DNA of 34,520 bases, taken from positions 1 through 34,520 of the forward strand of contig JBGGMJ010000148.1 of the NCBI GenBank assembly GCA_041288095.1, given 5' to 3'. Made by a program: the position numbers and the translations under genes. The stretch comes from Myxococcota bacterium (GTDB taxonomy: Bacteria; Myxococcota; XYA12-FULL-58-9; JALHOP01). Of the stretch, positions 824-27,691 are shown piece after piece (position 1 is the stretch's first letter; every line of letters starts with the position of its first letter). The notes beneath the pieces are model-generated. The model did no database searches. It was not told the DNA's origin and worked only from the letters and a program-made list of their open reading frames with translations.

Positions 824-1810
824 ATGGCTGGAATCCAAGCACTTCGCGAGGTTGATGGTCGAGGAACGGCAATCGAGAGCGTCGACGCTCCGTTCGTGAC
901 CCCTAGCGCGCCCGCGGTCCCAACCGACGGCATCGATATGCAAGGGCGTGGGCGCCTGCTCCCCGTTGGTGAAGGCCTGTCCGAGGTGCACGTGACCGGC
1001 GCTTTGCTCGCGCAGGCAGCCGTGGGTCCGAATGTCGACAGCATGCGCAACGTGCTCCGGCGATATCGGGCCATGGTCGCCGCCCTCGGCGACGGCACTC
1101 CGTCCGCGTTGATGGCCGCCTCGTGGAACGACCGTGACCGGGCCGTAGCCGCGTACGGTGAATACCTCGCGGGCCAACGTGTCGGCGTTCCCCAGGCCGC
1201 GCTGCTCACCGCGACGGGCGTCGAGCGCAACGTGGATATCGGTACGGCGCTGGCCGCCTACCGATCATTTGTCCGCTACGACAGAGTATCACCCAATGCC
1301 GCGGCCATGCTCGCCATCGCGCAGGTACGCACCGGCACGGATATCGATGCCGTCTACCGCCGCTACAGCCGATTCCTCGATAGCGGACGCTCGCAAACCG
1401 CCGCCGCCGCGCTCGCGGCCGCCGAGATCGAGAGCGGCGACTTGGACAGCTTCAATGGACTTTCTCAGCGTTTACGTAGCTCCGGCTTCCAAGCCGATGA
1501 CGACGCCATCATCGCATCCGCGATGCTGCGTCACGGCCGGTCCAATACGGTGGTCGCCTCGCTGCACAACACCCACTTCAAGGACCGTGGCGTTCCACCG
1601 TCGGTACGCGCGTCGTTGGTTGCCGCGGGTGTCGCCAGTGATCGCTCGAGCAGTCAAATGTTCGCCGCCTACGACTGGTTTCACAGGAACGGCGAGGTCC
1701 CAGAGGCGCACGCGGTCATGTTGGCTGCGAGCTGGGCGATGCCGGCGGGCGACGGCGCGGGCGTGATGACCACCATCGCGCTCCGCAATAGCGATATGCG
1801 GGACGACTAA
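824..1810 (+). CDS. Hypothetical alpha-helical repeat protein (about 7 repeats of 33-35 aa)
   Basis: GGAGAG RBS; fills the gap between the SET gene and allA; recurring 'AAY..F...(G)....AA.LA.A' unit. Confidence 0.75.
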   Translation: MAGIQALREVDGRGTAIESVDAPFVTPSAPAVPTDGIDMQGRGRLLPVGEGLSEVHVTGALLAQAAVGPNVDSMRNVLRRYRAMVAALGDGTPSALMAASWNDRDRAVAAYGEYLAGQRVGVPQAALLTATGVERNVDIGTALAAYRSFVRYDRVSPNAAAMLAIAQVRTGTDIDAVYRRYSRFLDSGRSQTAAAALAAAEIESGDLDSFNGLSQRLRSSGFQADDDAIIASAMLRHGRSNTVVASLHNTHFKDRGVPPSVRASLVAAGVASDRSSSQMFAAYDWFHRNGEVPEAHAVMLAASWAMPAGDGAGVMTTIALRNSDMRDD

Positions 1811-1816
1811 GGCACG

Positions 1817-2323
1817 TCAGCGAGCGCGGATCTTCGCCACCGAGGCCGCGGAGATCGACCGCGCGTTAATGGTCTGCTCGTCGCAGTTGTTGCCGGCACC
1901 GCCCCGATCGACGACGAGGAAGTCGCTCGTCACGTCGAGCGCCAACAGCGGGTGGTGCCAGACCCCCTTGGCGTAGTTCACGCCTTGCCGGGCGCGGGCG
2001 AGAAACGCGCGGACGCGACCAGGGTCGAGCTCGCCGGCCGGCGCCACGACCACGAGATACTCGCGCTCCGAGAGCGGTACGAAGGCTTGGCTGCCGAGCG
2101 GATGGCGCTCGAGCATGGTGATGGCGATGGGGAAGGGTCTCGCCTGGCCACGAAAGACGTTGATGAGGGTGCGGCCGTCGCCGACATCGACGCGCGCGAG
2201 GTCATGGTAACGCTCGCAGGTGCCGCCGTTGATCGGGTAATGGTGCGCGCCGTCGAGCTCGATGACGTCCCCGAACTCCGCGAAAGCGGAGCGCGTGAGC
2301 GGCTCGACGAGCAGCTCGCTCAC
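1817..2323 (-). CDS. allA: Ureidoglycolate lyase
   Basis: [57 protein letters not shown]. Overlaps the alc stop by 4 nt. Confidence 0.95.
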
Positions 2324-3315
2324 GCCAGCTTCCCGAAGAGTCGCAGGCGGCTCACGCCTCCATCCGGGATGATGTTGAAGCGAACGTGGGTGATGGGCCC
2401 GTGCTTCTCGATCTCCGTGGAGAAGTAGAGCTGCTTGTCCGCGGCGAGCTTCTGCTCTGGGAGGAGGACCGGCCAGAACATGCTCTGAGTGATGATCGAC
2501 TGATCGGTGCCGCTCGTGATGTTGGCGGCCTGGATGCTACAGCGGTCGGGGAAGTTGCCCTTGTAAAAGGCGGTGTCGACCTCGATCTTCTCGACCGTGC
2601 CGGCGTGCCCCAACGCGAGGACAGACCAGTCGTTGCCGGGCTCGCGACGCCGCCGCGTTTCCCAGCCATCGCCCATGTTGATGCCGCGGCCGGGGAGCAG
2701 GAGCTGCTCGGGCATGTTGTAGTGCGCGTCGTTCCAGCCGACCGCGCGGCCGCCGTTCTCGAGCGCGACGAGATCGTACACCGCGCTCTTGTCGTTCTTC
2801 GACCAGTCCTTGTGCACGTCTCCGTAGACGCGCAGACGGGCAACACCTCCGTCGGGGAAGATGTTGAGGCGCACGTGCGTCCACACTCCGCTATTGTCGA
2901 CAGCGGCGTAGTTGTGTGACGTGCCTTTCAAGGGGATGGCCGGCAGCACCTCGGTCCACACCGTATTGGCGTCGGGTGCGCCCGAGACGTTCGCCGCCTC
3001 GAGCGACGCCGCCGGCGGATAGTTACCCGTGAAGTGGCTGGTGTCGACGTCGACGCCGCGGATGCGTCCGGCGACACCGAGCTTGACCACGCACCAGTCG
3101 TGGCCGGCGACGCGCTTGCGGCGCGACTCCCAACCGTCCATCCACTTGCCGTTGTCGTCGTATTTGCCCGGGATGAACACGGCCGGCTCGTTCTGGAGCA
3201 TGCGGTTCATCTCGGCGAAGAAATCGTCGGAGCAGGCTACGGCTTTGGCGCCGAGACGCGCCTGCGCCAAGTTCGTGTAGCGGGTGAAGCTGGGCAGCGT
3301 CGGATCTGGTTGCAT
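2320..3315 (-). CDS. alc: Allantoicase
   Basis: Two allantoicase repeats: [64 protein letters not shown]. Confidence 0.97.
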
Positions 3316-3327
3316 TGGGGGTCCTGG

Positions 3328-3846
3328 CTAACTTTCGTCGACGAGATCTTGGAGGCGGAAGGAAGCGATCTTGGCAATCTGCGTGAGGCACTCGCGCATC
3401 TCGACGTCGCGCGACGAGCTCAACCGACGCGCGAAGTTGTCGATGATGCTCTGCCGGTTGTGGCCCTTGACCGCGAGGATGAAGGGGAAGCCGAACTTGG
3501 CGTTGTAGTCGCGGTTGAGCTGCTGCAAGCGCGCCATTTCATCGGCTGAGCACTCGGTGAGCCCGGCGCCGGCCTGTTCGCGATTCGAGTGTTCCGTGAG
3601 CTCTTTTCTCACCGCGGCCTTGCTGGCGAGCTCTGGGTGGGCGCGGATCAAACGCAGCTGCGCGTCCTTGCCGGCTTCGTCGACGGCGTTGACCATGGCG
3701 GAGTGCAGCGCATCGAGAGTCGCGAACGGGCGCTCCGCGAAAGCGGACTTGGCCACCCATGGTGAGTGTTCGAAAACACCGCCCAAGGCGCTGACGAAGT
3801 CCGGCTCCGACATCTCGGAGAGCTCGCGCAAACCGTAGCGTTTCAT
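3328..3846 (-). CDS. uraD: OHCU decarboxylase
   Basis: FEHSPWVA, LIRAHPELA, S.REQAGAGL, Y.AKFGFPFILAVKG, KIASFRL. Start set at ATG 3846 (MKRYGL…), not the 305-aa ORF start. Confidence 0.94.
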   Translation of the reverse strand: MKRYGLRELSEMSEPDFVSALGGVFEHSPWVAKSAFAERPFATLDALHSAMVNAVDEAGKDAQLRLIRAHPELASKAAVRKELTEHSNREQAGAGLTECSADEMARLQQLNRDYNAKFGFPFILAVKGHNRQSIIDNFARRLSSSRDVEMRECLTQIAKIASFRLQDLVDES

Positions 3847-3850
3847 CCCG

Positions 3851-3885
3851 TCTTCTATGACAAACAGATAACCCCCGACGCAAAT
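3851..3885 (-). promoter_or_regulatory. Purine-operon upstream element, copy 1 (ATTTGCGT-N11-TGTTTG-N2-ATAGAAGA)
   Basis: Same anchors and spacing as 5259-5293; ends 4 nt before the uraD ATG. Confidence 0.7.
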
Positions 3886-3916
3886 GGCGGGTACTTCCAG
3901 GACCGACGAGGGACCC

Positions 3917-4360
3917 ATGGACATCCAAGGAAAGCCGATACTTCCACCCGCCACCGCTAATTCGGTGAACACCGACCCGGCGGTGGATAAAGCCGCCGAA
4001 GCTGCTCCGCCACCTGCTCCTGACCAGTTCAAGCCACCGAACAACGAGGCGCCGCCTCCCGCTCCCCCGCCACCCCCCGCCGGGCTGCCTGTCGCCGGAC
4101 CTAACGTCGAGCCCAATGTCCTCGAGGACGGCCGGCGCATCTTGCGCGAGGCGATCGAAGACGACGACACCGACGACCTCGCGCGATTCTTGCGCGAGCT
4201 GCGCAACAACAACTCACCGACCGTCGTGCGCGGCGTCGCGATCATGCTGTTTCAAGAAGCCGGCCAGCAGCACGACAAGGGCGGCATGAGCACCGAGCTC
4301 TTTCTGAAGATCAAGGAGCTCATCGACACGACGCTTCGGGGCGTGCCGCCAACCATTTAA
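3917..4360 (+). CDS. Hypothetical protein with Pro-rich N-terminus and small helical C-domain, antisense within the purine operon
   Basis: GAGGGA RBS before ATG 3917 (alternative GTG 3965 lies downstream of GCCGATAC 3934-3941). Its stop overlaps the puuE stop (TTAA). Confidence 0.7.
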   Translation: MDIQGKPILPPATANSVNTDPAVDKAAEAAPPPAPDQFKPPNNEAPPPAPPPPPAGLPVAGPNVEPNVLEDGRRILREAIEDDDTDDLARFLRELRNNNSPTVVRGVAIMLFQEAGQQHDKGGMSTELFLKIKELIDTTLRGVPPTI

Positions 4361-5253
4361 GCAGGATGCCGCGCGGCCCAATGTCGCGCGATGTCCACGC
4401 GCCGGCAGATCCAGACCCGATCGTGCGCCTCGAGATGATCGAGGAAGCGCTGCAGTGCGCGAAAGCGGGCAGGGCGGCCGACGATGCGGCAGTGCAAGCC
4501 GATCGAGAGCATCTTGGGGGCTTCGTCCCCCTCGGCGTAGAGCACGTCGAACGCATCACGTAGGTAGGCGAAGAACTGGTCGCCCGAGTTGAAGCCCTGC
4601 GCCGTGGCGAAGCGCATGTCGTTGGTGTCGAGGGTGTACGGCACGACGAGGTGCTGCTTGCCGCTGACGGTGGTCCAATAGGGAAGGTCGTCGGCGTACG
4701 AGTCCGAGTCGTAGAGAAACCCGCCGTGCTCGACGACGAGCTTGCGCGTCTGGGGACTATCGCGGCCGGTGTACCAGCCGAGCGGGGCCTCGCCGGTGAT
4801 CCGTTTTAGCGTAGCGACGGCCTCCTGCAGGTGTTGGCGCTCGGTCGCTTCGTCCATGTTCTGGTAGCTGATCCAGCGCAGGCCGTGGCTCGCGATCTCG
4901 TGCTTCGCTTCGACGAACGCGCGCACCACGTCGGGGTGGCGCTCCATCGCCATGGCGACCCCGAAGACGGTGAGCGGGAGCTTGCGCGTCTCGAACTCGC
5001 GCAAGATGCGCCAAACACCGGCGCGGCTGCCGTATTCGTACATGCTCTCCATGCTCATGTGGCGCATGGGGAAGGCCTGGGCGCCGATGATCTCGGAGAG
5101 GAAGGTTTCGGAGGCCGGGTCACCGTGCAGGACGTTGTTCTCGCCGCCCTCTTCGTAGTTGAGGACGAATTGGACCGCGACACGCGCCCGCCCGGGCCAG
5201 TCAGCGTACGGGGGGCGGCGGCCGTAGCCTTCGAGATCGCGCGGGTACGTCAT
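4357..5253 (-). CDS. puuE: Allantoinase PuuE (polysaccharide-deacetylase fold)
   Basis: [68 protein letters not shown]. Confidence 0.97.
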
Positions 5254-5258
5254 CACTC

Positions 5259-5293
5259 TCTTCTATTGCAAACACCACCCGCCTCACGCAAAT
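5259..5293 (-). promoter_or_regulatory. Purine-operon upstream element, copy 2, in the divergent puuE/uraH intergenic region
   Basis: TCTTCTAT-tg-CAAACA-N11-ACGCAAAT on the + strand, matching 3851-3885. Confidence 0.7.
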
Positions 5294-5306
5294 ACCCCAA
5301 GCTACG

Positions 5307-5657
5307 ATGGGACGCCTGACCACACACGTCTTGGATACCGCTCACGGCAGGCCGGGCGCCGGCATCGAGGTCGAGCTGTACGCCGTCGAAGGTGGACGCC
5401 GTCTGCTCAAGAAGACACGCACCAACGCCGACGGCCGTTGCGACGCGCCGCTCCTCGAGGGTGACGAGATGGGCGTGGGACGCTACGAGCTCGTCTTCCA
5501 CGCCGGCAACTACTTCGCCGCGCAAGGTGTGCAGGTGCCCGAGCCGCGCTTCGTCGACAAAGTCACGCTGGCGTTCGGTATCGCGGACCCATCCGGCCAC
5601 TACCATGTACCGCTGCTCGTTTCGCCCTGGAGTTACACCACGTACCGCGGGAGCTGA
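5307..5657 (+). CDS. uraH: 5-hydroxyisourate hydrolase (transthyretin-like)
   Basis: [38 protein letters not shown] (terminal YRGS signature). Confidence 0.97.
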
Positions 5658-5660
5658 GAC

Positions 5661-6929
5661 ATGGGTGCCTACCTCCTCGACTGGGCAGCGATGCTCACCC
5701 GCTGGCTGCACTTCATCGCCGGCGTGGCCTGGATCGGCGCCTCCTTCTACTTCATCTGGCTCGACAACAGCTTGAAGGCACCGACCGATCCCGACCTGCA
5801 GAAGAAGGGCGTGTCGGGTGAGCTCTGGGCCGTCCACGGTGGCGGCTTCTACAATCCGCAAAAGTACATGGTGGCGCCGGCGACGCTGCCGGCCGACCTG
5901 CACTGGTTCAAGTGGGAGGCCTACACCACGTGGATCAGCGGCTTCCTGCTGCTCACCTGGGTCTACTACTTCAACGCCAGCGCTTACCTCGTCGATCAGA
6001 ATGTGCTCGCCATGTCGCCCGGCACCGCTATCGGCATCTCACTGGGCGTGCTGGCCTTCGGCTGGGTCATCTACGACGTCATGTGCCGCGTGTTCGGTAA
6101 AGCGGACAAGGCGCTCGCCATTTTCGGCTTCGTCCTGCTCATCGTCGCGGCGTGGGGGCTAGCGAAAGTCTTCAACGCGCGCGCCGCCTATCTGCACGTC
6201 GGCGCGATGATCGGCACCATGATGGCGGCGAACGTCCTCATGGTGATCATCCCCGGCCAGCGCCGCGTGGTCGAAGCCATGAAGCGCGGCGAGAAGCCCA
6301 ATCCCGAGGACGGCCGCCGCGCCAAGCAGCGCTCGGTGCACAACAACTACCTGACGCTACCGGTGCTCTTCATCATGGTGAGCAACCACTTCCCCATGAC
6401 CTACCAGCACCCGCGCGCCTGGTTGGTGCTCGCGGTCATCATGGTGGCGGCGGTGATGATCCGGCACTTCTTCAATCTGCGGCACAAGGGCAAGGTGGTC
6501 ATCGCGCTGCCGCTCACCGCCGCGGGGTTGTTCCTCGCGCTCATCATCGCCATGGCTCCGAGTCAGGACGCCGAAGCGGACGTGGGTCCGCCGCCGACCC
6601 TCGAAGAGGTGCACTCGGTGATTGGCCTGCGTTGCGCGCGTTGCCACGCCAAGAAGCCGAGCTTCCCCGGACTCCTCGTTGCTCCTCAAGGTCTCATCTT
6701 CGAGGACGCCGCCGTCATCGAGGCAAACCACGAGCGCATCTACAAGCAGGTGGTCGAGACCGAGGCGATGCCCCAGGGCAACATCACCAAGATGACCGAG
6801 GACGAGCGCAACCTCATCGGCCGCTGGTGCCGTTACATGAAGAACCGTAAGCCGGGCGAGGCTGTCCCACCGCCGCCGACGGATGCGCCGCCCGCTCCGG
6901 GAGAACAGCCCCAGCCAGCGGGCGACTAG
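5661..6929 (+). CDS. puuD: Membrane urate hydroxylase PuuD with C-terminal cytochrome c
   Basis: RWLH.IAG.AWIGASFYF, WAVHGGGFY, LHWFKWEAY.TW.SG, RSVHNNYLTLPVLFIMVSNH, heme motif CARCH, MPQGN.T.MT..ER. Confidence 0.95.
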   Translation: MGAYLLDWAAMLTRWLHFIAGVAWIGASFYFIWLDNSLKAPTDPDLQKKGVSGELWAVHGGGFYNPQKYMVAPATLPADLHWFKWEAYTTWISGFLLLTWVYYFNASAYLVDQNVLAMSPGTAIGISLGVLAFGWVIYDVMCRVFGKADKALAIFGFVLLIVAAWGLAKVFNARAAYLHVGAMIGTMMAANVLMVIIPGQRRVVEAMKRGEKPNPEDGRRAKQRSVHNNYLTLPVLFIMVSNHFPMTYQHPRAWLVLAVIMVAAVMIRHFFNLRHKGKVVIALPLTAAGLFLALIIAMAPSQDAEADVGPPPTLEEVHSVIGLRCARCHAKKPSFPGLLVAPQGLIFEDAAVIEANHERIYKQVVETEAMPQGNITKMTEDERNLIGRWCRYMKNRKPGEAVPPPPTDAPPAPGEQPQPAGD

Positions 6930-7528
6930 CGCAACGAGACGCCGCCGCCGCCGGGCTTCAGGCCGTCGCCACGGAGCGGCGCTTGCGGGGCGATGCCGCG
7001 GGCGGCCTCGCGACCTGGCTCCTCGCCAGTCACGTCGGTGGCACGGAGGCTCGCGGGGGGCGTGAAAGTCACCCAGCGCGGCATCTGGCTCGTGAGGTTG
7101 GCCGCTGCCTCGCCGGGTTGCATCGGACGGCTGCCCGAGTCGAAGACGCGACCGTTCTGATTCTCCACCAAGTACGCATGCTCCGAGCGCAGCAGCTCAC
7201 CTTGCGGTGAGACGATGTGGCGCCAGATGTCGACGTAGTAGCGCCCGTCGTCGCGGAGCTGCCAATCTTCGGCGATGATCTGAGTGTTGCCGCCGTGGAA
7301 CTGGCCGGCGGTATCGACGAAGCCGAACTGTCCGGCGAAGTAACGCTGATGGGTGCCGTCACGTGACCCCTCGGTCTGCTCGATCCCCTTGTAGGTTCCG
7401 AACTGGCCGTAGTCGGCCAAGGTGCCGTGGCTTGCGATGTTGGCGAGCGCGGTTTCCCAGCCGGCCGGCGCGACGGCCGGAGCTTCGTTGCGGGGCAGGG
7501 GGCTCACTGCGGAAATGGGGCTGGCCAT
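6926..7528 (-). CDS. Hypothetical protein with beta-rich core
   Basis: AAGGAG RBS; Ala/Pro/Ser N-terminus; stop overlaps the puuD stop (CTAG). Confidence 0.75.
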   Translation of the reverse strand: MASPISAVSPLPRNEAPAVAPAGWETALANIASHGTLADYGQFGTYKGIEQTEGSRDGTHQRYFAGQFGFVDTAGQFHGGNTQIIAEDWQLRDDGRYYVDIWRHIVSPQGELLRSEHAYLVENQNGRVFDSGSRPMQPGEAAANLTSQMPRWVTFTPPASLRATDVTGEEPGREAARGIAPQAPLRGDGLKPGGGGVSLR

Positions 7529-7553: not shown

Positions 7554-7581
7554 TTATCGACCGCTGCTCCCCAAAGGTTGC
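7554..7581 (-). promoter_or_regulatory. sigma28-like promoter GCAAC-N15-GTCGATAA
   Basis: Both boxes present, 25 nt upstream of ATG 7528. Confidence 0.7.
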
Positions 7582-7589: not shown

Positions 7590-8900
7590 CTAGCCGCCTA
7601 TGTCACGTAGCAGCCGTACTTCCGCCGCCGCGAGGTCCTTGGCGACGCGCTTGCCGAGCTGGGCACGCTCGCGCGCCGTGAGGAAGGCCCCGTCGACCGA
7701 ATTCTGGATGAGCTGCTCGACATCGCCGAGCGTCAGCTGGTCGAAGATGGTGAGCAGGCGCTCGAACTCCTTGCTCAGGGTGATGCCGGAGATCGCCGGG
7801 TTGTCGGTGCAGAGCGCGACCAGCACGCCAAGCTGCAGCAAAGCGTAGATGGGATGATCGCCGAAGCTGGCGATGGCGCCGACTTGTGCGTTCGCGGTCG
7901 GACAGCATTCGAGGACCGTTCGCAGCTTGCGCGTCAGTGCGACGACCTCGGGATCCTCGAGGATGCGCGACGCGTGGCCGACGCGTGGGACCTTCAGGTC
8001 GACGATAGCGGACTTGATGCTCTCCGGGCCCGCGGACTCGCCGGCGTGGCAGGTCGCGGAAAGCGCGTCGAGTCGTGCTCCCTCGAAGGCCTCGGCGTAA
8101 GGGCCAGGTGGAAACTGCACCTCGCTGGCACTCGCGAGGTCGATGGCGACGACGCCGAAGTCTTTGTACTTCGCGGCGAGCTTGGCGACGATCGCGCCTT
8201 GGTCCACTCCGTGTTGGCGGGCGATGATGATGATGAGCCGGGCCGTGGTCTTCGTCTTGTCGACACCCTTGCGTACGCCGGCGCAGACCGCCTTGACGAT
8301 GTCTTCCATGTCGAGGCCATGAGCCGCCGCCATGAACTGAGGCGCGAAACGGATCTCGACGTGGGCGAGCTTGTCCTTCGCCGCGTCTTCGACGGTCGAG
8401 GCCGCCAACTCCTCGATGACCTTCGGGTTCTTGAGGACCCGGCCGATGACGTCGAACTTGCTGAGGTAGACGGGCAAGGTGGGGCGGTCGGCCGTCGTGA
8501 TCTGGACGTGCGGCCGGAGACCCTCGAGGTCGTTCGCCGGCAACATGATGCCGAGCTCTTTGGCGACCGAGAGCAGCCGCTCCAGCGGAATCGAGCCGTT
8601 CAGGTGGCGGTGCAGATCGATCTTCGGCATGCGCTCGGTGAACGCGCGTAGCGCTTCCGGCGGCAGCTGCGAGAGCGGGGTGAGGCGCAGCTCGGCAATG
8701 CCGCGGTCGACCGCATCCATGACGGCCTTGCCCTGAGAGCCCATGAGCTTCGCGCGCGCGGTGTCGACCTTCTCGGAAAGCCAAGGTTTTCCGCGGTTCT
8801 GCGCGACCCCGACCTTCTCGGCGCGAGGCTTGGCGCTATCGGCTACGGCCTGCCGACCGGGAGCGACAGAACTCTCCCTTATCGTCACTCGCGATGTCAC
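7590..8900 (-). CDS. add: Adenosine deaminase family protein with about 85-aa N-terminal extension
   Basis: MPKIDLHRHLNGS, EIRFAP, CHAGE, RVGHA, LECCPTAN, CTDNP (metal ligands and catalytic Glu present). Confidence 0.9.
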   Translation of the reverse strand: MTSRVTIRESSVAPGRQAVADSAKPRAEKVGVAQNRGKPWLSEKVDTARAKLMGSQGKAVMDAVDRGIAELRLTPLSQLPPEALRAFTERMPKIDLHRHLNGSIPLERLLSVAKELGIMLPANDLEGLRPHVQITTADRPTLPVYLSKFDVIGRVLKNPKVIEELAASTVEDAAKDKLAHVEIRFAPQFMAAAHGLDMEDIVKAVCAGVRKGVDKTKTTARLIIIIARQHGVDQGAIVAKLAAKYKDFGVVAIDLASASEVQFPPGPYAEAFEGARLDALSATCHAGESAGPESIKSAIVDLKVPRVGHASRILEDPEVVALTRKLRTVLECCPTANAQVGAIASFGDHPIYALLQLGVLVALCTDNPAISGITLSKEFERLLTIFDQLTLGDVEQLIQNSVDGAFLTARERAQLGKRVAKDLAAAEVRLLRDIGG

Positions 8901-8907: not shown

Positions 8908-8934
8908 GTATCGGCACGTGACTCGCCGCGTTGC
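8908..8934 (-). promoter_or_regulatory. sigma28-like promoter GCAAC-N14-GCCGATAC
   Basis: Ends 7 nt before the GTG start at 8900. Confidence 0.7.
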
Positions 8935-12171: not shown

Positions 12172-14127
12172 CTACGCTTTCGCCGCGTCGAGCGCGCCAC
12201 GGATCTTCTCGTAGGGATACTCACGCACCGCGGCAAGCTCGGCGTCGGCGTCGACGACGGTGAAGAGCTTGGTGAGCGGCTCGATCGCGTCCGCCACGAC
12301 GGGCTTGTGCTCCACCCGCCTCACCATGATCTCCGCTGCCTTGAGGCGTACCCCCGGGCTTTCGGCGTCGAGGAGGCGTGCGAGGGTCGCGAGGTGCATC
12401 CGGTCGCCGAAAGCGCGCGCGACCTCGTAGACGTCGGAGGATTCGCAGGTCGTCGTAGTGAGCAGGTGATCGAGACTCTCCTGGGCGATCTCCGCGGCGG
12501 GGTGGTTCAAGGTCTCCCTGATGCGCATGCGGCACCAGAGGTCGGTGCCGGGGTCGGCGAGCAGGCCGCTGAGCGCGCTCATGACTGGTTCGGTGGACAG
12601 CGCGCCCTCGGCGCCTTGGATCGCGAGGATCGCGTGGCGGCGGAACTGAGTACCGCGGATGCCCTCGAGCACCAGCGCCTCGTGCTCCGCGCCGCTCAAC
12701 AGCTTCAGGAGCGCGTCGTACGCGAGGCTGGCCGAGCGCCCATCGCCGCCACTGATCTGCTCGCGCATGAGTGGAATGACTTGCTCGCGGGCCCGGGCCG
12801 TCATGCCGTGGGCTGCCGCGTCTTTCAGCGGCTCGATGAGGGGCTGGGCCGAGCCGCCGTCGCGCGCGATGCGCACCAGCTCGAGGATGGCCGGTGCCGG
12901 CGGCGGGCCGACCCGATTCATGATGCGCCACCAGAAATCGCCGTCGCGCTTCGCCAGCACGGCCGGCAGGTGAGTCCACGCCGCCGGTCCCATGCCATTG
13001 ATGATGTCCGCTAGAGCGTTCTTGTCGCTCACGAGATCCAGGAAGGCCGCGTCGCCCATGGCCGCCATGACGCGCACCGCCGCTCCGTCGTGGTCGTGCT
13101 CCCGGTCGGCGACGTAGCTTTCTTTGATGACGTCCACGGCGTTGGGCATGCTCACGAGTCGATCACCGCCGATAGTGGCGAGGGCTTCCATGATCGCGGC
13201 TCGGTCCTTGGATGCGTCCTTGCCCGCGATGCCGCGACGCTGTTCAAGTGCCCGCCAAAGCGGATCGACCGCGCCGGTCGCGAGCCGCCCGACCTTGCTC
13301 AAGCCGCGGCAAGCGGCCCGAAGATCTCCAGAGCTCTCGAGCTGCTTCACCCACGCCGGAACAGCGGCGGCGCCGAACGCTTCGACAGTGTGCGCGATTT
13401 CCCAGGGGCTGGCCGCGCTCTTCTCGAGCCGCAGGACGTCGGCCAAGAGCTCCGGGTTGTGCGGGGCTTGGGCCCGGATTGCGTCGAGGCCTTCGCCGGG
13501 ATCCCGCGCGAGCAGGTCGCGCAAGGCGGCTGCGTCGCCAGGTTGCGTTTCCAGGGCGGCGACCTTGGTGGCTCCTTGCAAAGCGGCGGTGTCGTCGTCG
13601 AGCAGGGCGGCCACGGTCGCGATCTGAATGGCGAGCGGCTCGCGGCAGCAAATGTCACCAAACGCGGCTTCGTCGGCGGCGCAGACGAGCTGTACGGCCT
13701 TGCCCAGGCTCATGGTTCGGCCGCTGTAATCTTGGAGGCGGTAGACGATCCGGTCGATGCTGCTCCGCGAGCCGATCTCCGCCACGAGGCCGGAGAGCCG
13801 CGCCAGCATCACGTGAGGTTGCGCGATCCTCACCGTAGTGGCGAGCACGCTCTCGATAGTGTCCTCAAGACCGAAGCCGGCGAGCTGCGACGGATGCACG
13901 CCCATCGCGCCGGCGCGGCCACCGTTCGCGGCGAGACCCAAGCGCTCGGTGCCGGGCTTTGGGGCGCCGATGGCGGCGTTGCCGGGCTCGCGGAGAGGCG
14001 TTGGACCAGGTGGTGGTGGGGCGGTGAGGGCCGCTGGTACGGCAATATGAGCGGTTGCTCCCGGGATCGTGCGTGGTGCGTTCGTCATATCCGCTCTCTG
14101 CCGCATGGAACCGCCATTAGCGGTCAT
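12172..14127 (-). CDS. Large hypothetical alpha-solenoid (HEAT-like) protein with Pro-rich N-terminus
   Basis: HEAT-like units such as L..LL.AESPGVRLKAAEIM and AIMEALATIG. Start at ATG 14127 or 14088. Confidence 0.7.
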   Translation of the reverse strand: MTANGGSMRQRADMTNAPRTIPGATAHIAVPAALTAPPPPGPTPLREPGNAAIGAPKPGTERLGLAANGGRAGAMGVHPSQLAGFGLEDTIESVLATTVRIAQPHVMLARLSGLVAEIGSRSSIDRIVYRLQDYSGRTMSLGKAVQLVCAADEAAFGDICCREPLAIQIATVAALLDDDTAALQGATKVAALETQPGDAAALRDLLARDPGEGLDAIRAQAPHNPELLADVLRLEKSAASPWEIAHTVEAFGAAAVPAWVKQLESSGDLRAACRGLSKVGRLATGAVDPLWRALEQRRGIAGKDASKDRAAIMEALATIGGDRLVSMPNAVDVIKESYVADREHDHDGAAVRVMAAMGDAAFLDLVSDKNALADIINGMGPAAWTHLPAVLAKRDGDFWWRIMNRVGPPPAPAILELVRIARDGGSAQPLIEPLKDAAAHGMTARAREQVIPLMREQISGGDGRSASLAYDALLKLLSGAEHEALVLEGIRGTQFRRHAILAIQGAEGALSTEPVMSALSGLLADPGTDLWCRMRIRETLNHPAAEIAQESLDHLLTTTTCESSDVYEVARAFGDRMHLATLARLLDAESPGVRLKAAEIMVRRVEHKPVVADAIEPLTKLFTVVDADAELAAVREYPYEKIRGALDAAKA

Positions 14128-14138: not shown

Positions 14139-14146
14139 GTATCGGC
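14139..14146 (-). promoter_or_regulatory. sigma28-like -10 box GCCGATAC
   Basis: 11 nt before ATG 14127; -35 box poor. Confidence 0.55.
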
Positions 14147-14217: not shown

Positions 14218-15063
14218 TTATCCGCGCGGTACGTAGCGATACAGGCCGACACCCGGCTCGACTTTGGCGTCGCTCCACTTGGTGTCGACGAACACGTTCA
14301 TGGCCTCGGGATAGCCGGCCGCGAGCGCCATGACGTTGGCTGGCTCGTTGTCGAGCGTGCCCACCACCGGGCCGAGCTTGTCGATCTGGGGCTTCACGTC
14401 GCGCTTGAAGTCGGCGTCGCCATACTTCGACCCATCGGGGTGCTTCGCGAAGGGCTTGAGGAAGAGGAAGTAGCGCTTGTCATCCGGCGTGAAGCCGTCG
14501 CGCTCGAGCGCCGTCAGCGTACCGGCGCCTTGGTCGGCGACGACCCGCCCGGTAAGGAAAACGACCCGTGCGCCGGCGTCCGCGAGCTTGCGCGTCAGAT
14601 CGGCGACCTCCGCGATGACCGGGTCGATGGCGGTGTGCGGATTGTCGAGGAAGGTCTTCAAGAAGAACGGCAGCAGCACCTTCATGACCTCGGCGGTCTC
14701 TTCGGCACTGACGCCGGCGGCGCGCACCGTGTCCGCGGCCGAGTAACGCACGTGCTCCAGCCGAACCTCGGCGAGGGCGGCCTTCACCTTCGGGAAGGCA
14801 TCGGCGTCCTTGGTCGCCGCCCATTCGCGCAGCACCGCCACCATGCGTGGGTCGTTGTCGTAGAGCGTGTAGTCCAGGTCGAAGATGACGACGGGCTGCT
14901 TGCCATTGCGGACATGGTCGCGGACCGTGGCGAGGAGCTTGGCGCCGACCTCGGCGCTCGACAGCGGCACGAAGCGCGTCGCCGCGATCCAGGCGGCGCC
15001 CCCCACGGGTTCCCGCGAGGGCGGCGTCGGAGGCGCGGCGGTGTTGGCCGCCACTGGGGCCAT
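14218..15063 (-). CDS. HAD-superfamily (acid phosphatase-like) hydrolase
   Basis: Motif I VIFDLDYT, motif II FLTGR, motif III DFK, motif IV LDNEPAN. Start ATG 15063 or GTG 15054. Confidence 0.85.
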   Translation of the reverse strand: MAPVAANTAAPPTPPSREPVGGAAWIAATRFVPLSSAEVGAKLLATVRDHVRNGKQPVVIFDLDYTLYDNDPRMVAVLREWAATKDADAFPKVKAALAEVRLEHVRYSAADTVRAAGVSAEETAEVMKVLLPFFLKTFLDNPHTAIDPVIAEVADLTRKLADAGARVVFLTGRVVADQGAGTLTALERDGFTPDDKRYFLFLKPFAKHPDGSKYGDADFKRDVKPQIDKLGPVVGTLDNEPANVMALAAGYPEAMNVFVDTKWSDAKVEPGVGLYRYVPRG

Positions 15064-22059: not shown

Positions 22060-22086
22060 TTATCGGCGTTGGCCGGCGAACGGTGT
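22060..22086 (-). promoter_or_regulatory. sigma28-like promoter ACACC-N14-GCCGATAA
   Basis: Perfect -10 box, 10 nt before ATG 22049. Confidence 0.65.
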
Positions 22087-23361: not shown

Positions 23362-23436
23362 GTGGCGATCTAACGAGACGCGCGTCGCGAAGCCAGCGCC
23401 GCTGTCAACGGGGTGCCGCCCCGTCACCGGCGCTCG

Positions 23437-23464
23437 GCAACGACGCGTTGGCCAACCGCGATAA
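23437..23464 (+). promoter_or_regulatory. sigma28-like promoter GCAAC-N15-CGCGATAA
   Basis: 10 nt before ATG 23475. Confidence 0.65.
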
Positions 23465-23474
23465 CGCCGGCCTC

Positions 23475-24137
23475 ATGGCCCAGCTCGACTTCTGCAGGTC
23501 CGCGGCAATTGCCCACGTGCACCAACGCATTGAGGCCGGTGTCATCCCTGCCGGCGAAATCGTCGCGGTTGGAGATGTCTCGGTTACCGGCCGCGTCCCG
23601 GAAGCCGTCGCGACCGCCGAAGCCTTGATCGCGGACTTCAAGCGCGAGCACGCAGGCACGGAGGCGTCGTCCCCCACGCAGCCAGTCGCGGCCCAAGAAG
23701 GTTCCTGGTCGCATCGCTTCGGTCGCTTTGCCCAAGCGGTCGACCGCTACTTGCCCGACACCGAAGTGAAGGAACGCATCGTCGTCCGCGTGCGGCACGC
23801 CACGGGCGAAGCGACCTATCCCGTCGACGTCACTGATCCCTTCGCGACCAGCGCCGCACGGCAGGCGGCGCAGACGACCCTGTTCGCCGGCGCGGCTCCC
23901 TTCGTCGGCCCAGGGGTCATCTTCGCCGGCGCCGCCATGTGCTGGAAGCGCTCACGCGAGGACGCCGACGCGAACACACGGATCGCCATGAAGCGCACCG
24001 CGACCAAGCTGGGCGCGCTCAGCGTGTTGCGCATGCTGCCGGTGACCGAGCCGATGTGCTTGATCCTCGGCGGCACCGAGCTCGCGGCGAAGCGCGCCTT
24101 GCAGCAGCGCGCGAGCTACACGAGCGACGGCGCCTAA
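23475..24137 (+). CDS. Hypothetical protein with C-terminal hydrophobic segments
   Basis: Fills the gap between the MFS and lipoprotein genes; motif-associated ATG. Confidence 0.65.
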   Translation: MAQLDFCRSAAIAHVHQRIEAGVIPAGEIVAVGDVSVTGRVPEAVATAEALIADFKREHAGTEASSPTQPVAAQEGSWSHRFGRFAQAVDRYLPDTEVKERIVVRVRHATGEATYPVDVTDPFATSAARQAAQTTLFAGAAPFVGPGVIFAGAAMCWKRSREDADANTRIAMKRTATKLGALSVLRMLPVTEPMCLILGGTELAAKRALQQRASYTSDGA

Positions 24138-24147
24138 CGCCGGGCCG

Positions 24148-24690
24148 CTACAAGACGAAGAGTCTGTCCGCGACGAAGTCGTCGGAATACCCCGGATTGA
24201 AGCCACAGGTCGCCTCGACTTCGGGGGCTTCCACCTCGGCAACGGTGCCGCTCAGGATGACCGACAGTGACGCGAAGCTCATGCCGGCCTCGAGCTCGCA
24301 GCCGTCACCATCGAGGGACTCCGATGCATGCAGCGTCGCGTCGACGAGCAGCACGCGCGCGGTGACCGAGCTCTCGCAGTCGCTGGAGAATGCAACACCC
24401 TCCTGAAAGCCGTCCTCATCGAGCCGGCGCAGGCTGTCATCGTCGTAGACCACGTACCCAAACGGCTTGTCGAAGGACTCGCTCAGCAGGAACTTCGTGC
24501 CGGCCGGAATGCGCTCCGAGCCCGACCATTGGCTCTGGCCGATCCAGCGCATCGCCGCGTGCTCGGCGAGCAGGGTCCCGGTGCAATAGCCGGTGAAGAT
24601 CTGCACGCTGGCCGGGTCGATTGGCTCTGGGTCGCTGGAACAAGCGACGGACAGGAAAGCGATGGCTGCGGCGACAATGGTCAGTCTCAT
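24148..24690 (-). CDS. Putative lipoprotein
   Basis: MRLTIVAAAIAFLSVA-C lipobox; AAGGGGG RBS. Confidence 0.8.
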   Translation of the reverse strand: MRLTIVAAAIAFLSVACSSDPEPIDPASVQIFTGYCTGTLLAEHAAMRWIGQSQWSGSERIPAGTKFLLSESFDKPFGYVVYDDDSLRRLDEDGFQEGVAFSSDCESSVTARVLLVDATLHASESLDGDGCELEAGMSFASLSVILSGTVAEVEAPEVEATCGFNPGYSDDFVADRLFVL

Positions 24691-24783
24691 GAAATCCCCC
24701 TTGTGGCGCGCAGTTCGCCAGAAAGCGGCTCGAAGGCAAGTGACACACGGATCCAATCGAGCGGCGCGGACGCCGGCGGCGCG

Positions 24784-24789
24784 TATAAT
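24784..24789 (+). promoter_or_regulatory. sigma70-type -10 box TATAAT
   Basis: Perfect hexamer in GC-rich intergenic DNA, 43 nt before ATG 24833. Confidence 0.55.
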
Positions 24790-24832
24790 GACGAGCGCAG
24801 TCTCACCCCTGTCTCTTTCGAGGAGCCCTCTC

Positions 24833-25303
24833 ATGGCCCGCTCACGCGTAGCGTCACGTCTTGGTATGCTGATCCTTGCTGGCGCGCTAACGCCTGCATT
24901 CGCTGCATGCGGCAACAAGACCTACACCAAAGGCGGGACCCCGGTGCTGATCCCGATGCCGCCGGACCGGAATGACGACCGGAACGACGATCGGTCCGCC
25001 CGACAGCTGCCACCCGACAACCAGCCCGATAGTCGCGAAACGCAGACGCGGCCGGTCGTGGTCGCGGACTCCCCCTCGAGCGCACCAGCGGCCGAGTCGG
25101 CTCCCGCGACGAATCACGGGCAGGAGCGCGCGGCCGAAGTGCATGAGCGCAACGAGGAGCGAAAGGCCGAGCACGACAGCGCCAGCGAGGTGAAGCAAGA
25201 CGACAACGCCGCCGTCGCCGGGAGCGCCCATGACAAGAGCGACGACAAAGGCAAGTCGAAGGGCAAGGGGAAGGGTAAAGGCAAAGGCAAGAAGGGCAAC
25301 TGA
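24833..25303 (+). CDS. Putative disordered lipoprotein with (KG)n C-terminal tail
   Basis: GAGGAG RBS; …AFAA-C lipobox; ends KGKSKGKGKGKGKGKKGN. Confidence 0.75.
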   Translation: MARSRVASRLGMLILAGALTPAFAACGNKTYTKGGTPVLIPMPPDRNDDRNDDRSARQLPPDNQPDSRETQTRPVVVADSPSSAPAAESAPATNHGQERAAEVHERNEERKAEHDSASEVKQDDNAAVAGSAHDKSDDKGKSKGKGKGKGKGKKGN

Positions 25304-25317
25304 CCCGATCGATTGCC

Positions 25318-26223
25318 TTAGCCGGGCGCACCAAAGCCGTAGACGTCGCGGAAGCTCGAGTCGCGCGAAGCGGCGGGTACGCGTTGGTTGCTCACGACCT
25401 CGTCGAGCCCCCGCGTGATCTCGATGCGCACGTTCGGTCGCTGGCGGTGGATATGACCGCGGATCGCTTCCGCCAGATCTTGGCGCGCGGGCACTGGCAC
25501 GCGGCGCAACGCCGTCCACAAGGCGTCGATGTCCCACATGCCCATCGGGCTCGAGATGAGGCTCGCGATCAATTGAACATCGCGTCCCAACCGTGGCAGC
25601 GCCTCGCTTTGGCAGCGCGCGATTGCGGCATCGAGCACCGCTCGACTCTCCTGAGTCAACGCTCCCTTCGCTTCGCAGCGCGCACGCCAGCGCTCGAGGA
25701 TGTGACAGAGACGGGCCTTGTCGGTGCCGTCCGCTGCAGCCATCCGATCGAGCATCGACTTCAAGTCATGCGACTTGATCCTCGTGTGGTTGGCACGTTG
25801 GATTCTCATTTCACCGACGGCTCGCAGAACGGCACCCGTCGCGGCTCGCACGCCCAGGAGCGCGATGCTCGCGGGCACCAGAACGAACACGATTGCGAGG
25901 GAGACGCCCTGCCATCCGCCCGTCGCGAGGCCGGCTCCCACGCTCAGCAGGGCGGCGGACCCTTGGGCGATGCGGTCGAAGCTGTCGGCCCATACTTCGC
26001 GGTGCGTGTAGTTTTTGGCGAATGACGTGGTGAAGTCGTCGTCGATGAAGCCCGCTACGCCGCGCGTCAATCTCGCGAAGTCCGCTGCAGCGGTCTTGTG
26101 ATCGCGCAGAGCGCCCCGCAGCAGCTGCGCCATGTCCGCTTGCGCGGGCACGGTGCCCGAGGCGACAGCGCTCGCTTGGAGGCCGAAGCATTGGCTCGTC
26201 GCGTTCGCTGTCGCGCCACTCAT
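25318..26223 (-). CDS. Hypothetical protein with central hydrophobic hairpin
   Basis: AALLSVGAGLATGGWQGVSLAIVFVLVPASIALLGV; Ser/Ala/Thr-rich N-terminus; no Sec signal. Confidence 0.7.
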   Translation of the reverse strand: MSGATANATSQCFGLQASAVASGTVPAQADMAQLLRGALRDHKTAAADFARLTRGVAGFIDDDFTTSFAKNYTHREVWADSFDRIAQGSAALLSVGAGLATGGWQGVSLAIVFVLVPASIALLGVRAATGAVLRAVGEMRIQRANHTRIKSHDLKSMLDRMAAADGTDKARLCHILERWRARCEAKGALTQESRAVLDAAIARCQSEALPRLGRDVQLIASLISSPMGMWDIDALWTALRRVPVPARQDLAEAIRGHIHRQRPNVRIEITRGLDEVVSNQRVPAASRDSSFRDVYGFGAPG

Positions 26224-26230
26224 ATCGAGC

Positions 26231-26259
26231 TTATCGCCCAACCCGACGTTTCGACCTGC
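26231..26259 (-). promoter_or_regulatory. sigma28-like promoter variant GCAGG-N16-GGCGATAA
   Basis: 7 nt before ATG 26223. Confidence 0.5.
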
Positions 26260-26301
26260 CCGCCCGCCCTGGTGCCTTGGCGTCAGGGGGCGAGACTGAG
26301 G

Positions 26302-26375
26302 CGCGCGATGCAGGATTTGAACCTGCGGCCTATAGCTCCGGAGGCTATCGCTCTATCCAGCTGAGCTAATCGCGC
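26302..26375 (-). tRNA. tRNA-Arg (anticodon CCG)
   Basis: Acceptor stem GCGCGAT/ATCGCGC, D-arm AGCTCAGCTGGATAGAGC, anticodon arm ATAGC-CTCCGGA-GCTAT, T-arm GCAGG-TTCAAAT-CCTGC. Followed by CCT, so the CCA end is not fully encoded. Confidence 0.97.
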
Positions 26376-26431
26376 GTGGGGCCGGGGTGTAGTCGACGGC
26401 GGCGCCGGTGTCTAGGGCGAGGTTGAAACGC

Positions 26432-26458
26432 GCAACTTCTGCCGCACCATGTCGAAAA
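26432..26458 (+). promoter_or_regulatory. sigma28-like promoter GCAAC-N14-GTCGAAAA
   Basis: 33 nt before ATG 26492. Confidence 0.6.
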
Positions 26459-26491
26459 CCCGATCATAGATATTTCAGGGATGTGTGCGTC

Positions 26492-27691
26492 ATGGGAGGC
26501 GTGGTGGACGGCATTCAACGTATGATCACCGCGAACCGTGACCTCGGGGCGCGCATCACCGAGGCGCGCGGCTGGCGCGGAGAGCTGGCGGCGATCCACG
26601 GAGACAGCCGGCACCCGTCTGGGTTCAGCAAACACTTCGTCGATTGGTGTGTGCAGTCCGGTTTAGCGGACGCTGATTTCTTGAAGGCCGGGCGCGCCGG
26701 CTTCGGTGGCTTTACCGAGTATCGGGGCTATAGCCCGCGACCCGCCATCGTGCTCGTCCACGGCAACGGCTGTGACGCGACGGTCATGGCGCCGACCATC
26801 ACCGAGCTGATGCGGCAGGGCTTCGGCCCCCAGGACATCTACGTCGTCAGCTACGGCAAAGGGGATCCCGAGCAGGCGGCGAACGAGACCCACGCGCCCG
26901 CTTACGCGCGCAATCTCCGAACCTTCCTCGATGCGGTCGCCGGTTACACCGGTAGACAGTTGGTCGTCGTCGGCCACTCCAAAGGGGTGACCGACGTCCA
27001 GCTCGCGATCCATGGCGTCAGCATCGACGAGGGCGGCGATGTCGTGCGTTTCGCCAACAAGCTGCCCGTACGCACCTTCATCGGCGCCGCCGGGGCCAAC
27101 CAAGGCTTGAGCGAGTGCCGCACGCTGCCGTTTCTGCCGGTGTCGAACCGCTATAACGGATTTCATCCGGAAGCGAAGCTCTATCAAGTGCTGCCCAAGC
27201 TCGGTAAGGCCGCCGATAGGGTCTTCAGCATGGTGGCGCGCGACGACGAGCTCGAGGACGACGAGCTCAAGACCGCGCAGGTACCGTTCCAGGACGGTCA
27301 GGTGGTCCTCGGGAGCGGCGGCCACATGGCGCCGATCTGGGAGCCTGATGCGCTGGCCTCGCTCATCGCCGACCGGCGTTACGATCTCATCGCCCGCGAC
27401 GCCTACGAATCGATCCGCCCGGGTCTGAAGTACGCCAACCCCTTGTCTCCGTTCGCTCTAGCGGACGCGATGCTCGTTGCCGGGGAGCACTTCCTCGGTG
27501 CTGGTTTCGAAGCCGCTCGCCTCCGCGATCCAGCCATGCGCGCCGGGTGTGGGATTGCGACGCTCTTCGAAGCCGCGCGCGCCGCTTTCCTGCAGATGCC
27601 TCAGGTACCCATGGCGCTGCTCGCGTCCGCCGGCGTGCGCACGCCTGAAGCGGCGGCCATCGCTGGTGAGATCAGCAGGCGGGCTCGTTAG
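26492..27691 (+). CDS. Alpha/beta-hydrolase, class 2 lipase-like
   Basis: IVLVHGNG, FLDAV.GYTG, nucleophile elbow VGHSKG, GAAGANQGL, DDE, GH. No signal peptide. Confidence 0.85.
   Translation: MGGVVDGIQRMITANRDLGARITEARGWRGELAAIHGDSRHPSGFSKHFVDWCVQSGLADADFLKAGRAGFGGFTEYRGYSPRPAIVLVHGNGCDATVMAPTITELMRQGFGPQDIYVVSYGKGDPEQAANETHAPAYARNLRTFLDAVAGYTGRQLVVVGHSKGVTDVQLAIHGVSIDEGGDVVRFANKLPVRTFIGAAGANQGLSECRTLPFLPVSNRYNGFHPEAKLYQVLPKLGKAADRVFSMVARDDELEDDELKTAQVPFQDGQVVLGSGGHMAPIWEPDALASLIADRRYDLIARDAYESIRPGLKYANPLSPFALADAMLVAGEHFLGAGFEAARLRDPAMRAGCGIATLFEAARAAFLQMPQVPMALLASAGVRTPEAAAIAGEISRRAR

Follow-up and report, generated by a model that had tools for sequence, protein, structure and literature searches.

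A conserved promoter of the sigma-28 type marks about 280 genes in the genome of a Myxococcota bacterium and is tied to FliA-like sigma factors, one of which is encoded in a non-flagellar type III secretion system (T3SS) cluster. The genes behind this promoter are mostly orphans, few of them encode Sec signals, and their N-termini are shifted toward the composition of type III secretion signals. Our study centered on a 34,520-nt stretch of DNA, here called the window, which is contig JBGGMJ010000148.1 (C148) of assembly GCA_041288095.1 (5.85 Mb in 212 contigs, 90% complete, 67% G+C). A sequence-only reading of the window had proposed that eight ‘motif-bearing’ genes share signal-less, disordered N-termini resembling type III or flagellar export signals, and that their products are exported or injected effectors, some of them made by adding a leader to an ordinary metabolic enzyme. 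That reading left its motif undefined; a GCCGATAA-like word is found upstream of the eight starts. Contigs and comparison genomes are numbered below with the prefixes C and G.

A sigma-28-type promoter across the genome

The promoter comprises a −35 block, GCAAC (with the minor forms GAAAC, GCACC and ACAAC), and a −10 block, CCGATA. Exact GCAAC–CCGATA pairs occur at 81 sites with a 15-nt spacer and at 36 with a 16-nt spacer, compared to 0–4 sites at any other spacing between 5 and 24 nt. For scoring, we used a position weight matrix (PWM) derived from 328 and 214 half-anchored sites, which yields (g)CCGATA(a); iteration at a low threshold had drifted into coding periodicity, and the matrix was rebuilt from the half-anchored sites. 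Scores of at least 18 were obtained for 163 + 79 sites at the two spacings versus 2–8 at six control spacings that keep the codon phase, and scores of at least 16 for 241 + 125 versus 26–45. At a threshold of 17, the genome holds 297 sites, 279 of which are followed within 200 nt and in the right orientation by an open reading frame (ORF) with coding-like G+C content at third codon positions (GC3). These sites define 278 genes, hereafter the regulon.

The −10 block matches the flagellar sigma-28 −10 consensus, GCCGATAA (PMC8325347), and the spacer of ~15 nt has sigma-28 promoter geometry. Start codons lie 8–11 nt after the hexamer in 47 of the 278 genes and at 13–18 nt in only 10, followed by a broad distribution. 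This peak at 8–11 nt points to frequent leaderless mRNAs and would be expected if roughly one in five regulon transcripts begins at the start codon itself. A GTCA word 13–16 nt upstream of GCAAC, seen in 32 of 245 strong sites, may be an extra element in a subset. The PIP and hrpII boxes of Xanthomonas and Ralstonia (TTCG-N15/16-TTCG) were also considered and dropped, with one match each against about two expected.

In a comparison of 121 genomes from the phylum, exact sites number 91–143 in the window’s genus (117 in the window’s genome) and 1–60 in its order, compared to 0–7 for a reversed control. In one other family, 17–53 exact sites are present wherever a cluster-sigma orthologue of at least 50% identity exists. 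Within genus g18 of that family, four genomes without a T3SS-type sigma factor have 0–2 sites, compared to 17 in the single genome carrying it. In genomes whose only such factor is a flagellar-type FliA beside FlhA, counts mostly stay below ten (0–18).

The secretion cluster and the FliA-like sigma factors

Contig C92 encodes SctT, SctS, SctR, a FliO-like protein, a FliM/N-like SctQ, FliK-like and YscO-like proteins, SctN, FliH/SctL, a FliG-like protein, SctJ and a SctI-like protein, with SctV located on C31 and SctU on C41 (SctU and SctN detected by tblastn, the rest by Pfam). TPR LcrH-like genes are also present in the cluster. The gene order matches that of a cluster in the complete 9.0-Mb genome of another, Myxococcus-like family, whose SctN is 65% identical, as well as the published needle-less T3SS* of M. 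xanthus (PMC10433427, PMC12075869). Judged by gene content and order, the system is of the Myxococcus type and non-flagellar. The 90% complete assembly gave no match to the flagellin family (PF00669) and no tblastn match to FlgG, FlgH, FlgI or FlgK of the same genus. The sequence-only reading had made its export idea depend on T3SS or flagellar export genes elsewhere in the genome; type III genes are present, while the flagellar part does not apply to this organism. A full flagellar cluster (FliOP, FlhB, FlhA, FlhF, FlhG, FliA, FlgG, FlgH, FlgI, FlgJ and FlgK) exists in the same-genus genome G030 (C2:130001–150000), and the DNA flanking it maps to the middle of contig C79 (32393–35555) in the window’s genome. 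Flagella have been gained or lost within one Myxococcota genus, the cluster being missing here at the syntenic place.

Three candidate sigma factors match the FliA_WhiG model. One of these, encoded beside sctV on C31, was rejected as the regulator after identification as RpoH (334 bits, above cut-off). The other two have TIGR02479 (FliA_WhiG) as their best family, with 163.7 and 166.1 bits, below the curated 189.6. The first of these two (C92:35188–36078) is the last gene of a four-gene operon at the edge of the T3SS cluster, 12 kb from sctJ, in which it is preceded by genes for a 185-aa Gly-rich protein, a 141-aa TPR LcrH-like protein and a 159-aa protein. The same four-gene operon directly precedes sctI–sctJ in the 9.0-Mb genome. 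Neither the 159-aa nor the 185-aa protein had a Pfam match at E ≤ 1. The Gly-rich protein (C92:36795–37943, minus strand) has a needle- or rod-like C-terminal heptad region, and its only Pfam signal is T3SS_needle_F for the homologue in G118, which at E=0.02 is not significant. The pair it forms with the TPR LcrH-like protein looks like a needle subunit or translocator accompanied by its chaperone, in a system that is supposed to lack a needle. The second FliA_WhiG-like factor (C127:21744–22571) is directly followed by an ORF of the FlgM family (PF04316, 30.8 bits, cut-off 25). With this pair (C127:21744–22853), a flagellar checkpoint couple has outlived the flagellum in a genome without flagellar genes.

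The promoter recurs within the secretion locus. In the 9.0-Mb genome, the sigma operon lies inside the T3SS cluster behind a perfect site (score 23.9), and further cluster sites scoring 21.1, 19.6 and 16.2 lie before small genes and TPR genes. The window’s genome has weaker sites before the sctI–sctJ operon (17.2), the sigma operon (15.3 and 16.5) and sctV (16.7). To follow this arrangement more widely, we collected 80 sigma loci by sigma alignment from Myxococcota metagenome-assembled genomes, Myxococcaceae, Archangium, Hyalangium and Myxococcus sp., 70 of which had at least 2.6 kb of upstream sequence. A sense-strand site scoring at least 17 was found in 51 of the 70, always 1.3–2.3 kb upstream of the sigma gene, compared to two on the antisense strand (P=2e-19). 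All five exact sites in a complete Myxococcus-like genome lie 28–70 nt before an ORF, and one of these ORFs opens the sigma operon. Two of the candidates in that genome begin with MSNRIGRSTFVPPTPTPAAT and MSRIDSRPRAISNPSAAPTR, and three of the five encoded N-termini are Ser/Thr/Pro-rich as judged by eye, without scoring.

N-termini and content of the regulon

T3SS substrates carry a non-cleaved, unstructured signal in their first ~20–30 residues that is rich in Ser, Thr and Pro and has no hydrophobic core. For comparison with this composition, 4,148 genes were called by GC3, among which 223 regulon genes were set against a background of 2,169 genes with an in-frame stop within 15 codons of the first start. 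The combined fraction of Ser, Thr, Pro, Asn and Gln (STPNQ) over residues 2–31 is 0.312 in the regulon versus 0.245 in the background (P=1e-19). Sec-like hydrophobic N-terminal segments occur in 7% versus 31%. The STPNQ difference persists among signal-less proteins only (201 versus 1,391; 0.319 versus 0.260, P=6e-14). In these, an excess of Ser and Thr and a deficit of Lys and Arg are confined to the first 30 residues, with Pro and Ala mildly raised along the whole length. Leaderless translation was rejected as a cause of the composition (leaderless versus leadered, 0.310 versus 0.322, P=0.32).

We termed N-termini T3S-like if signal-less with an STPNQ of at least 0.36, a home-made composition proxy used in place of a trained predictor. 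By this measure, 89 of 223 regulon proteins (40%) belong to the class versus 342 of 2,169 others (16%; odds ratio 3.5, P=5e-16). Such N-termini are not equally common in motif-less genes; equal frequency would have spoken against the export idea.

Most regulon genes have no known family: 82 of the 100 best-scoring ones lack a Pfam match at E ≤ 1e-6, compared to 11 of 40 random background genes (P=2e-9), and the same holds for 72 of the 90 top regulon proteins of at least 100 aa. The recognizable members include types that are usually secreted, namely two subtilases, an M64 peptidase, a GH3 glycosidase, a serpin, an S33-type hydrolase, a lipase and a beta-lactamase-like protein. No Sec signal is present in these secreted-type enzymes, whose domains begin at residues 68–160, after leaders such as MTSTTDSTRRGTGVRGTPSG or MNSSVTKASGHSASQAGISSSG. 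A leader on an otherwise ordinary enzyme, as the sequence-only reading had it, also fits the subtilases, the M64 peptidase, the GH3 enzyme and the serpin.

Promoter sites and genes of the window

The eight N-terminal peptides on which the export idea was founded are encoded exactly at 824 (+), 3917 (+), 7528 (−), 8900 (−), 14088 (−), 15063 (−), 22049 (−) and 26223 (−). The start at 8900 is a GTG, that at 3917 is the second ATG within the ORF 3884–4360, and those at 14088, 15063, 22049 and 26223 are ATGs that lie within longer open frames. None of the eight has a hydrophobic Sec core: the maximal 12-residue Kyte–Doolittle means in the first 46 residues are 0.11–1.30, below our limit of 1.8. Richness in Ser, Thr and Pro was borne out for seven (STPNQ 0.36–0.44 over residues 2–26; 81st–93rd percentile of the 2,169 background genes) and not for 824 (0.20; 28th percentile). 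In the three proteins with a Pfam domain, the domain begins after the leader, at residues 92, 68 and 58, as had been described; the other five have no Pfam family. A Pfam scan of the window proteins likewise agreed that the window encodes no secretion apparatus. The label ‘motif-bearing’ held in part. Full two-block promoters precede 7528, 8900 and 22049, while 824 and 14088 have only a −10 element and 3917, 15063 and 26223 score below 12 with the PWM.

Six strong promoters precede genes in the window, three of which (23475, 26492 and 28998) were not among the eight. Across three same-genus genomes (G030, G066 and G086; ~77–80% DNA identity), both blocks are kept at all six strong sites wherever the region exists. 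The start codons at 824, 7528, 8900, 14088 and 22049 are kept in relatives as well, while the leader sequences drift and carry indels. This conservation eases the concern that true starts lie downstream of the leaders for these five, and not for 15063.

The site GCAAC-N16-TCGATA(A) at 7555..7581 (−; PWM 19.0) lies before a gene for a 200-aa protein (6926..7528, −) without a Pfam family, whose N-terminus, MASPISAVSPLPRNEAPAVAP, has an STPNQ of 0.40 and no hydrophobic segment. Both promoter blocks are kept in G030 between diverged flanks, as are the ATG and the first residues of the protein. An ACACC-N15-CCGATA(A) site at 22061..22086 (−; PWM 17.7), with its −10 and −35 region kept in G030 and G066, precedes a beta-lactamase-family protein (PF00144; 20514..22049, −). 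Its domain begins at residue 68 after a 67-residue leader, MNILGNLSASAAPRLQPAAVPT. The ATG, located 11 nt past the hexamer and within the leaderless class, is kept in relatives, and the leader sequence is variable.

The third listed gene with a full promoter encodes an adenosine deaminase (7590..8900, −; PF00962 from residue 92) with an N-terminal extension of ~90 residues. Its promoter, GCAAC-N15-CCGATA(C) at 8909..8934 (−; PWM 21.2), is kept in G030 and G066, and its GTG lies 8 nt past the −10 hexamer, within the leaderless class. Ordinary deaminase homologues (314–365 aa) span no more than two thirds to four fifths of its length and lack the first ~90 residues. The extension is present in only nine of 26 aligned sequences, all of them the nearest ones. 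In the AlphaFold model (mean predicted local distance difference test score (pLDDT) 89), residues 1–41 are predicted to be unstructured (pLDDT <50), and two helices (39–52 and 55–71) stand between this disordered start and the barrel. The proposal of a leader added to an ordinary metabolic enzyme, thus, fits the deaminase, whose leader would be a candidate export signal. At columns 296–302 of alignment A3, DLASAS-E in this deaminase and its nearest homologue stands in place of the DLAG(D/N/Q/A)-E of the remaining 24 sequences, and the His, Asp and Glu active-site columns are retained.

Two of the eight genes are preceded by −10-like elements without a GCAAC −35 block. A lone GCCGATAA at 794..801 (+; two-block PWM <12), kept in G030 and G066, lies 22 nt before the ATG of a 328-aa protein without a Pfam family (824..1810, +), whose N-terminus is the one that is not Ser/Thr/Pro-rich. 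Divergent from it, at 149–766 (−), is a bacterial SET-domain protein (PF00856, E=7e-20). The other element, GCCGATAC at 14139..14146 (−), is kept in G030 and lies 50 nt before the ATG of a 638-aa protein without a Pfam family (12172..14088, −). It begins with MTNAPRTIPGATAHIAVP; its ATG and first four residues are kept in G030 before the sequences diverge.

The remaining three genes have weaker credentials. A HAD-like hydrolase (14218..15063, −) has only weak HAD hits (from residue 58), all below curated cut-offs, and its proposed start is doubtful: the ATG is replaced in two same-genus genomes, by ATC in one and by CTT in the other, with conservation starting ~60 nt downstream. The Pro/Ala-rich 147-aa ORF at 3917..4360 (+), without a Pfam family, resides on a strain-specific 0.5-kb insertion (3889–4365) that is replaced by 12–36 nt in all three same-genus genomes. 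The insertion lies in a purine-degradation cluster, between the genes for OHCU decarboxylase and PuuE allantoinase (PuuE at 4357–5256); the cluster also includes ureidoglycolate lyase (1817–2323), allantoicase (2320–3315) and a PuuD-like protein (5661–6929). These cluster genes were named from the look of their translations, without a family search. A 301-aa protein without a Pfam family (25318..26223, −) belongs to a variable island adjoining a tRNA-Arg gene, in a region unmatched in relatives.

This island (23400–26375), absent or different in the same-genus genomes, adjoins tRNA-Arg(CCG) at 26300–26375 and comprises four small genes without a known family, one with a strong promoter site. 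That site, GCAAC-N16-GCGATA(A) at 23437..23463 (+; PWM 17.4), is kept in G066 and precedes the gene 23475–24137 (+), whose start is of the leaderless class. A further unlisted promoter, GCAAC-N15-TCGAAA at 26432..26457 (+; PWM 17.8; kept in G030), precedes a class-2 lipase gene (PF01674; + strand, start near 26492, end 27691). The best site of the window, GCAAC-N15-CCGATA(C) at 29046..29071 (−; PWM 21.4; kept in G030 and G066), lies upstream of a polyhydroxybutyrate (PHB) depolymerase gene (PF06850; 27718–28998, −). The N-terminal FHA domain of a 656-aa protein at 29089–31059 (−) matches the YscD cytoplasmic-domain family as well and is followed by a long acidic, Pro-rich linker; the protein probably does not belong to the T3SS.

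Proposed export, alternatives and known systems

Taken together, these observations suggest a scheme in which a FliA/WhiG-type sigma factor, one or both of the paralogues, would read GCAAC-N15/16-CCGATA(A) before the ~280 genes. In a large subset of their products, the unstructured, Ser/Thr/Pro/Ala-rich, Lys/Arg-poor and Sec-less N-terminus might act as a non-cleaved signal for the T3SS export gate. This subset would include hydrolases that are normally Sec-exported and would be taken by the T3SS gate instead. Release of FlgM through the T3SS would switch the regulon on, and the exported hydrolases would act on prey. Within this scheme, we infer the identity of the sigma factor, the coupling of FlgM to export, the export of the proteins and the action of the hydrolases on prey. 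That the regulon leaders are export signals for the needle-less non-flagellar T3SS appears to us, from sequence, an even bet. In myxobacteria, the needle-less T3SS is required for prey lysis (PMC10433427, PMC12075869). The earlier idea of exported or injected effectors is partly supported, in that a T3SS is present and the N-termini are enriched in the regulon; it is weakened in that only three of the eight proposed genes have the full promoter and that belonging to the regulon is no proof of export.

Several findings weigh against the export scheme. The effect is moderate, with ~60% of regulon proteins outside the T3S-like class, itself a proxy, and 7% have Sec- or lipoprotein-like N-termini. 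Some members look cytoplasmic (glutathione peroxidase, a homoserine dehydrogenase fusion, SCP2, an intracellular-type PHB depolymerase and a Ser/Thr kinase). Flagellar sigma-28 regulons also hold non-secreted motor and chemotaxis proteins, and ~280 substrates would be a very large repertoire. Within the window, five of the eight genes lack the full promoter, and the three strong-promoter genes outside that list have N-terminal STPNQ values at the 16th percentile. No window-level excess of such N-termini is seen (seven of ~29 genes against 16% in the background, binomial P=0.16), and the association between motif and N-terminus is significant only genome-wide. On the promoter side, the −35 TAAA of the sigma-28 class is absent, with GCAAC in its place, and both sigma factors stay below the curated cut-off. 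G022 has 60 sites and no cluster-type sigma, its factors being of the FlgM-linked type and a flagellar FliA, and Myxococcus-like genomes have the cluster sigma with only a background motif count (~5). These two cases blur the assignment of the promoter to one or both paralogues.

The main rival to export is a physiological or developmental programme of the sigma-28 family, for example for predation, starvation or stationary phase, with products that stay inside or leave by other means and N-termini that reflect young, lineage-specific and partly disordered proteins. WhiG, for instance, drives sporulation in Streptomyces. Co-option of the family for non-flagellar programmes has been described (PMC8325347, PMC12871210), and the lack of a family for 82 of 100 regulon proteins, the clearly cytoplasmic-type enzymes among them and a slight whole-length enrichment in STPNQ and Ala, with fewer hydrophobic residues, would all fit. 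Such a programme leaves unexplained why the Ser and Thr excess and the Lys and Arg deficit are restricted to the first 30 residues. It also sits poorly with normally extracellular enzymes (subtilases, M64 peptidase, GH3 glycosidase, serpin and lipase) that carry leaders rather than Sec signals, with the four-fold depletion of Sec-type N-termini and with a sigma operon that lies in the T3SS cluster and carries the same promoter. We consider it a serious but rather unlikely account. Export by another machine (a Tad/Kil-like pilus, a type VI secretion system, outer-membrane vesicles or an unknown route), with the sigma factor merely co-regulating these genes with the T3SS, seems improbable to us. 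It draws on the M. xanthus needle-less T3SS, which has no secretin, needle or translocon, works with a Kil/Tad pilus and has unknown effectors (PMC12075869, PMC10433427). Against it, the N-terminal composition matches type III signal features, and no signal for these other routes was seen, although no search aimed at one was made.

Two further explanations fare worse. The leaders could be chance open frames of a 67% G+C genome, created by start codons set too far upstream. In favor of this, half of the eight starts are ATGs inside longer frames, the ATG at 15063 is not conserved and coding conservation there begins ~60 nt downstream, and public gene calls place the starts of two close homologues of the deaminase further downstream (387 and 396 aa). 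We nevertheless find it very unlikely, given the five start codons conserved in relatives, the promoters directly upstream, where the first start after the promoter bounds the protein, and the 8–11-nt start peak, which argues that the codons are mRNA 5′ ends. Moreover, the deaminase extension can be aligned in nine homologues, and its second half is predicted by AlphaFold to fold onto the barrel. Least credible of all is that a flagellar FliA controls the regulon and that its products are late substrates of a flagellar export apparatus. The −10 block is the flagellar one, and a same-genus genome has a full cluster with FlhA–FlhF–FlhG–FliA; yet the window’s genome, in its 90% complete assembly, lacks the flagellin family and any tblastn match for FlgG, FlgH, FlgI and FlgK, the relative’s flagellar-cluster flank maps mid-contig in C79, 117 exact motif sites are present despite the missing flagellar genes, and genomes with only the flagellar-type FliA mostly have fewer than ten.

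The export scheme can be extended to a broader, more tentative proposal, to which we give somewhat less than even weight. The T3SS, as the earliest-branching non-flagellar type, may have kept the flagellar late-gene switch (a FliA-type sigma, the GCCGATAA −10 and, in this genus, FlgM), which would now turn on cargo. The promoter would then tag T3SS* substrates, ~280 here and a handful in Myxococcus-like genomes, and hydrolases would have become prey-lysing effectors by acquiring the promoter and a disordered leader. If so, the sigma-28 checkpoint of flagella outlasted the transition from flagellum to secretion system, with a bearing on injectisome origins. Tying the promoter box to the cluster sigma provides a short list of candidate effectors in Myxococcus-like genomes and a very long one in this uncultured genus; the five Myxococcus-like sites make the question directly testable in a model organism. 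Should the leaders work as export signals, they would offer a simple case of metabolic and digestive enzymes recruited as effectors.

Control of type III substrates by sigma-28 and FlgM is textbook knowledge for flagella. In Salmonella and E. coli, sigma-28 (FliA) with its secreted anti-sigma factor FlgM controls the flagellar class-3 genes. The present system shares with this regulon the −10 GCCGATAA, the spacing and the FlgM-family neighbor, has sigma factors that resemble the FliA/WhiG family, and would likewise include substrates of a type III gate. It differs in the absence of a flagellum, in a −35 of GCAAC rather than TAAA and in having one sigma gene inside a non-flagellar T3SS cluster; whereas the class-3 regulon comprises a few dozen flagellar and chemotaxis genes, the number here is ~280, mostly orphans. 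HrpL of Pseudomonas syringae is a T3SS-encoded alternative sigma factor whose hrp box marks scattered effector genes and has been used to find them. An alternative sigma encoded with a T3SS is common to both cases, but HrpL is an extracytoplasmic function sigma factor with a different box, compared to the FliA/WhiG-like type here, and the targets would be bacteria rather than plants if our organism is a predator. In Campylobacter jejuni, the sigma-28-dependent non-flagellar proteins Fed, Cia and FspA are exported via the flagellar T3SS, and a chlamydial sigma-28 is also known. These cases share a sigma-28 promoter before non-flagellar proteins that leave, here putatively, through a type III gate. 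Campylobacter, however, keeps its flagellum and Chlamydia has a handful of targets, and neither has hundreds of orphan ones.

The titles and abstracts covered by our literature search held nothing on a link between sigma-28 or FliA and the myxobacterial T3SS, or on this box. Among the closest known systems is the needle-less T3SS* of M. xanthus (mxan_2434–2464), a member of the ‘Myxo’ non-flagellar T3SS family of Abby and Rocha (PMC12075869, PMC10433427, PMC3459982). The word ‘sigma’ does not occur in the available text of these three papers, although such an annotation could stand in the supplements, which lay outside the search; the T3SS* effectors are referred to as unknown or putative (PMC12075869, PMC10433427). 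In genes and order, the two systems agree: both comprise a SctI-like protein, SctJ, a FliG-like protein, SctL, SctN, a FliK-like protein, a FliM/N-like SctQ, SctRST, SctU, a TPR LcrH-like protein and SctV. They differ in the reach of the promoter, which stands before ~280 genes in the present genus as against about five exact sites in a Myxococcus-like genome.

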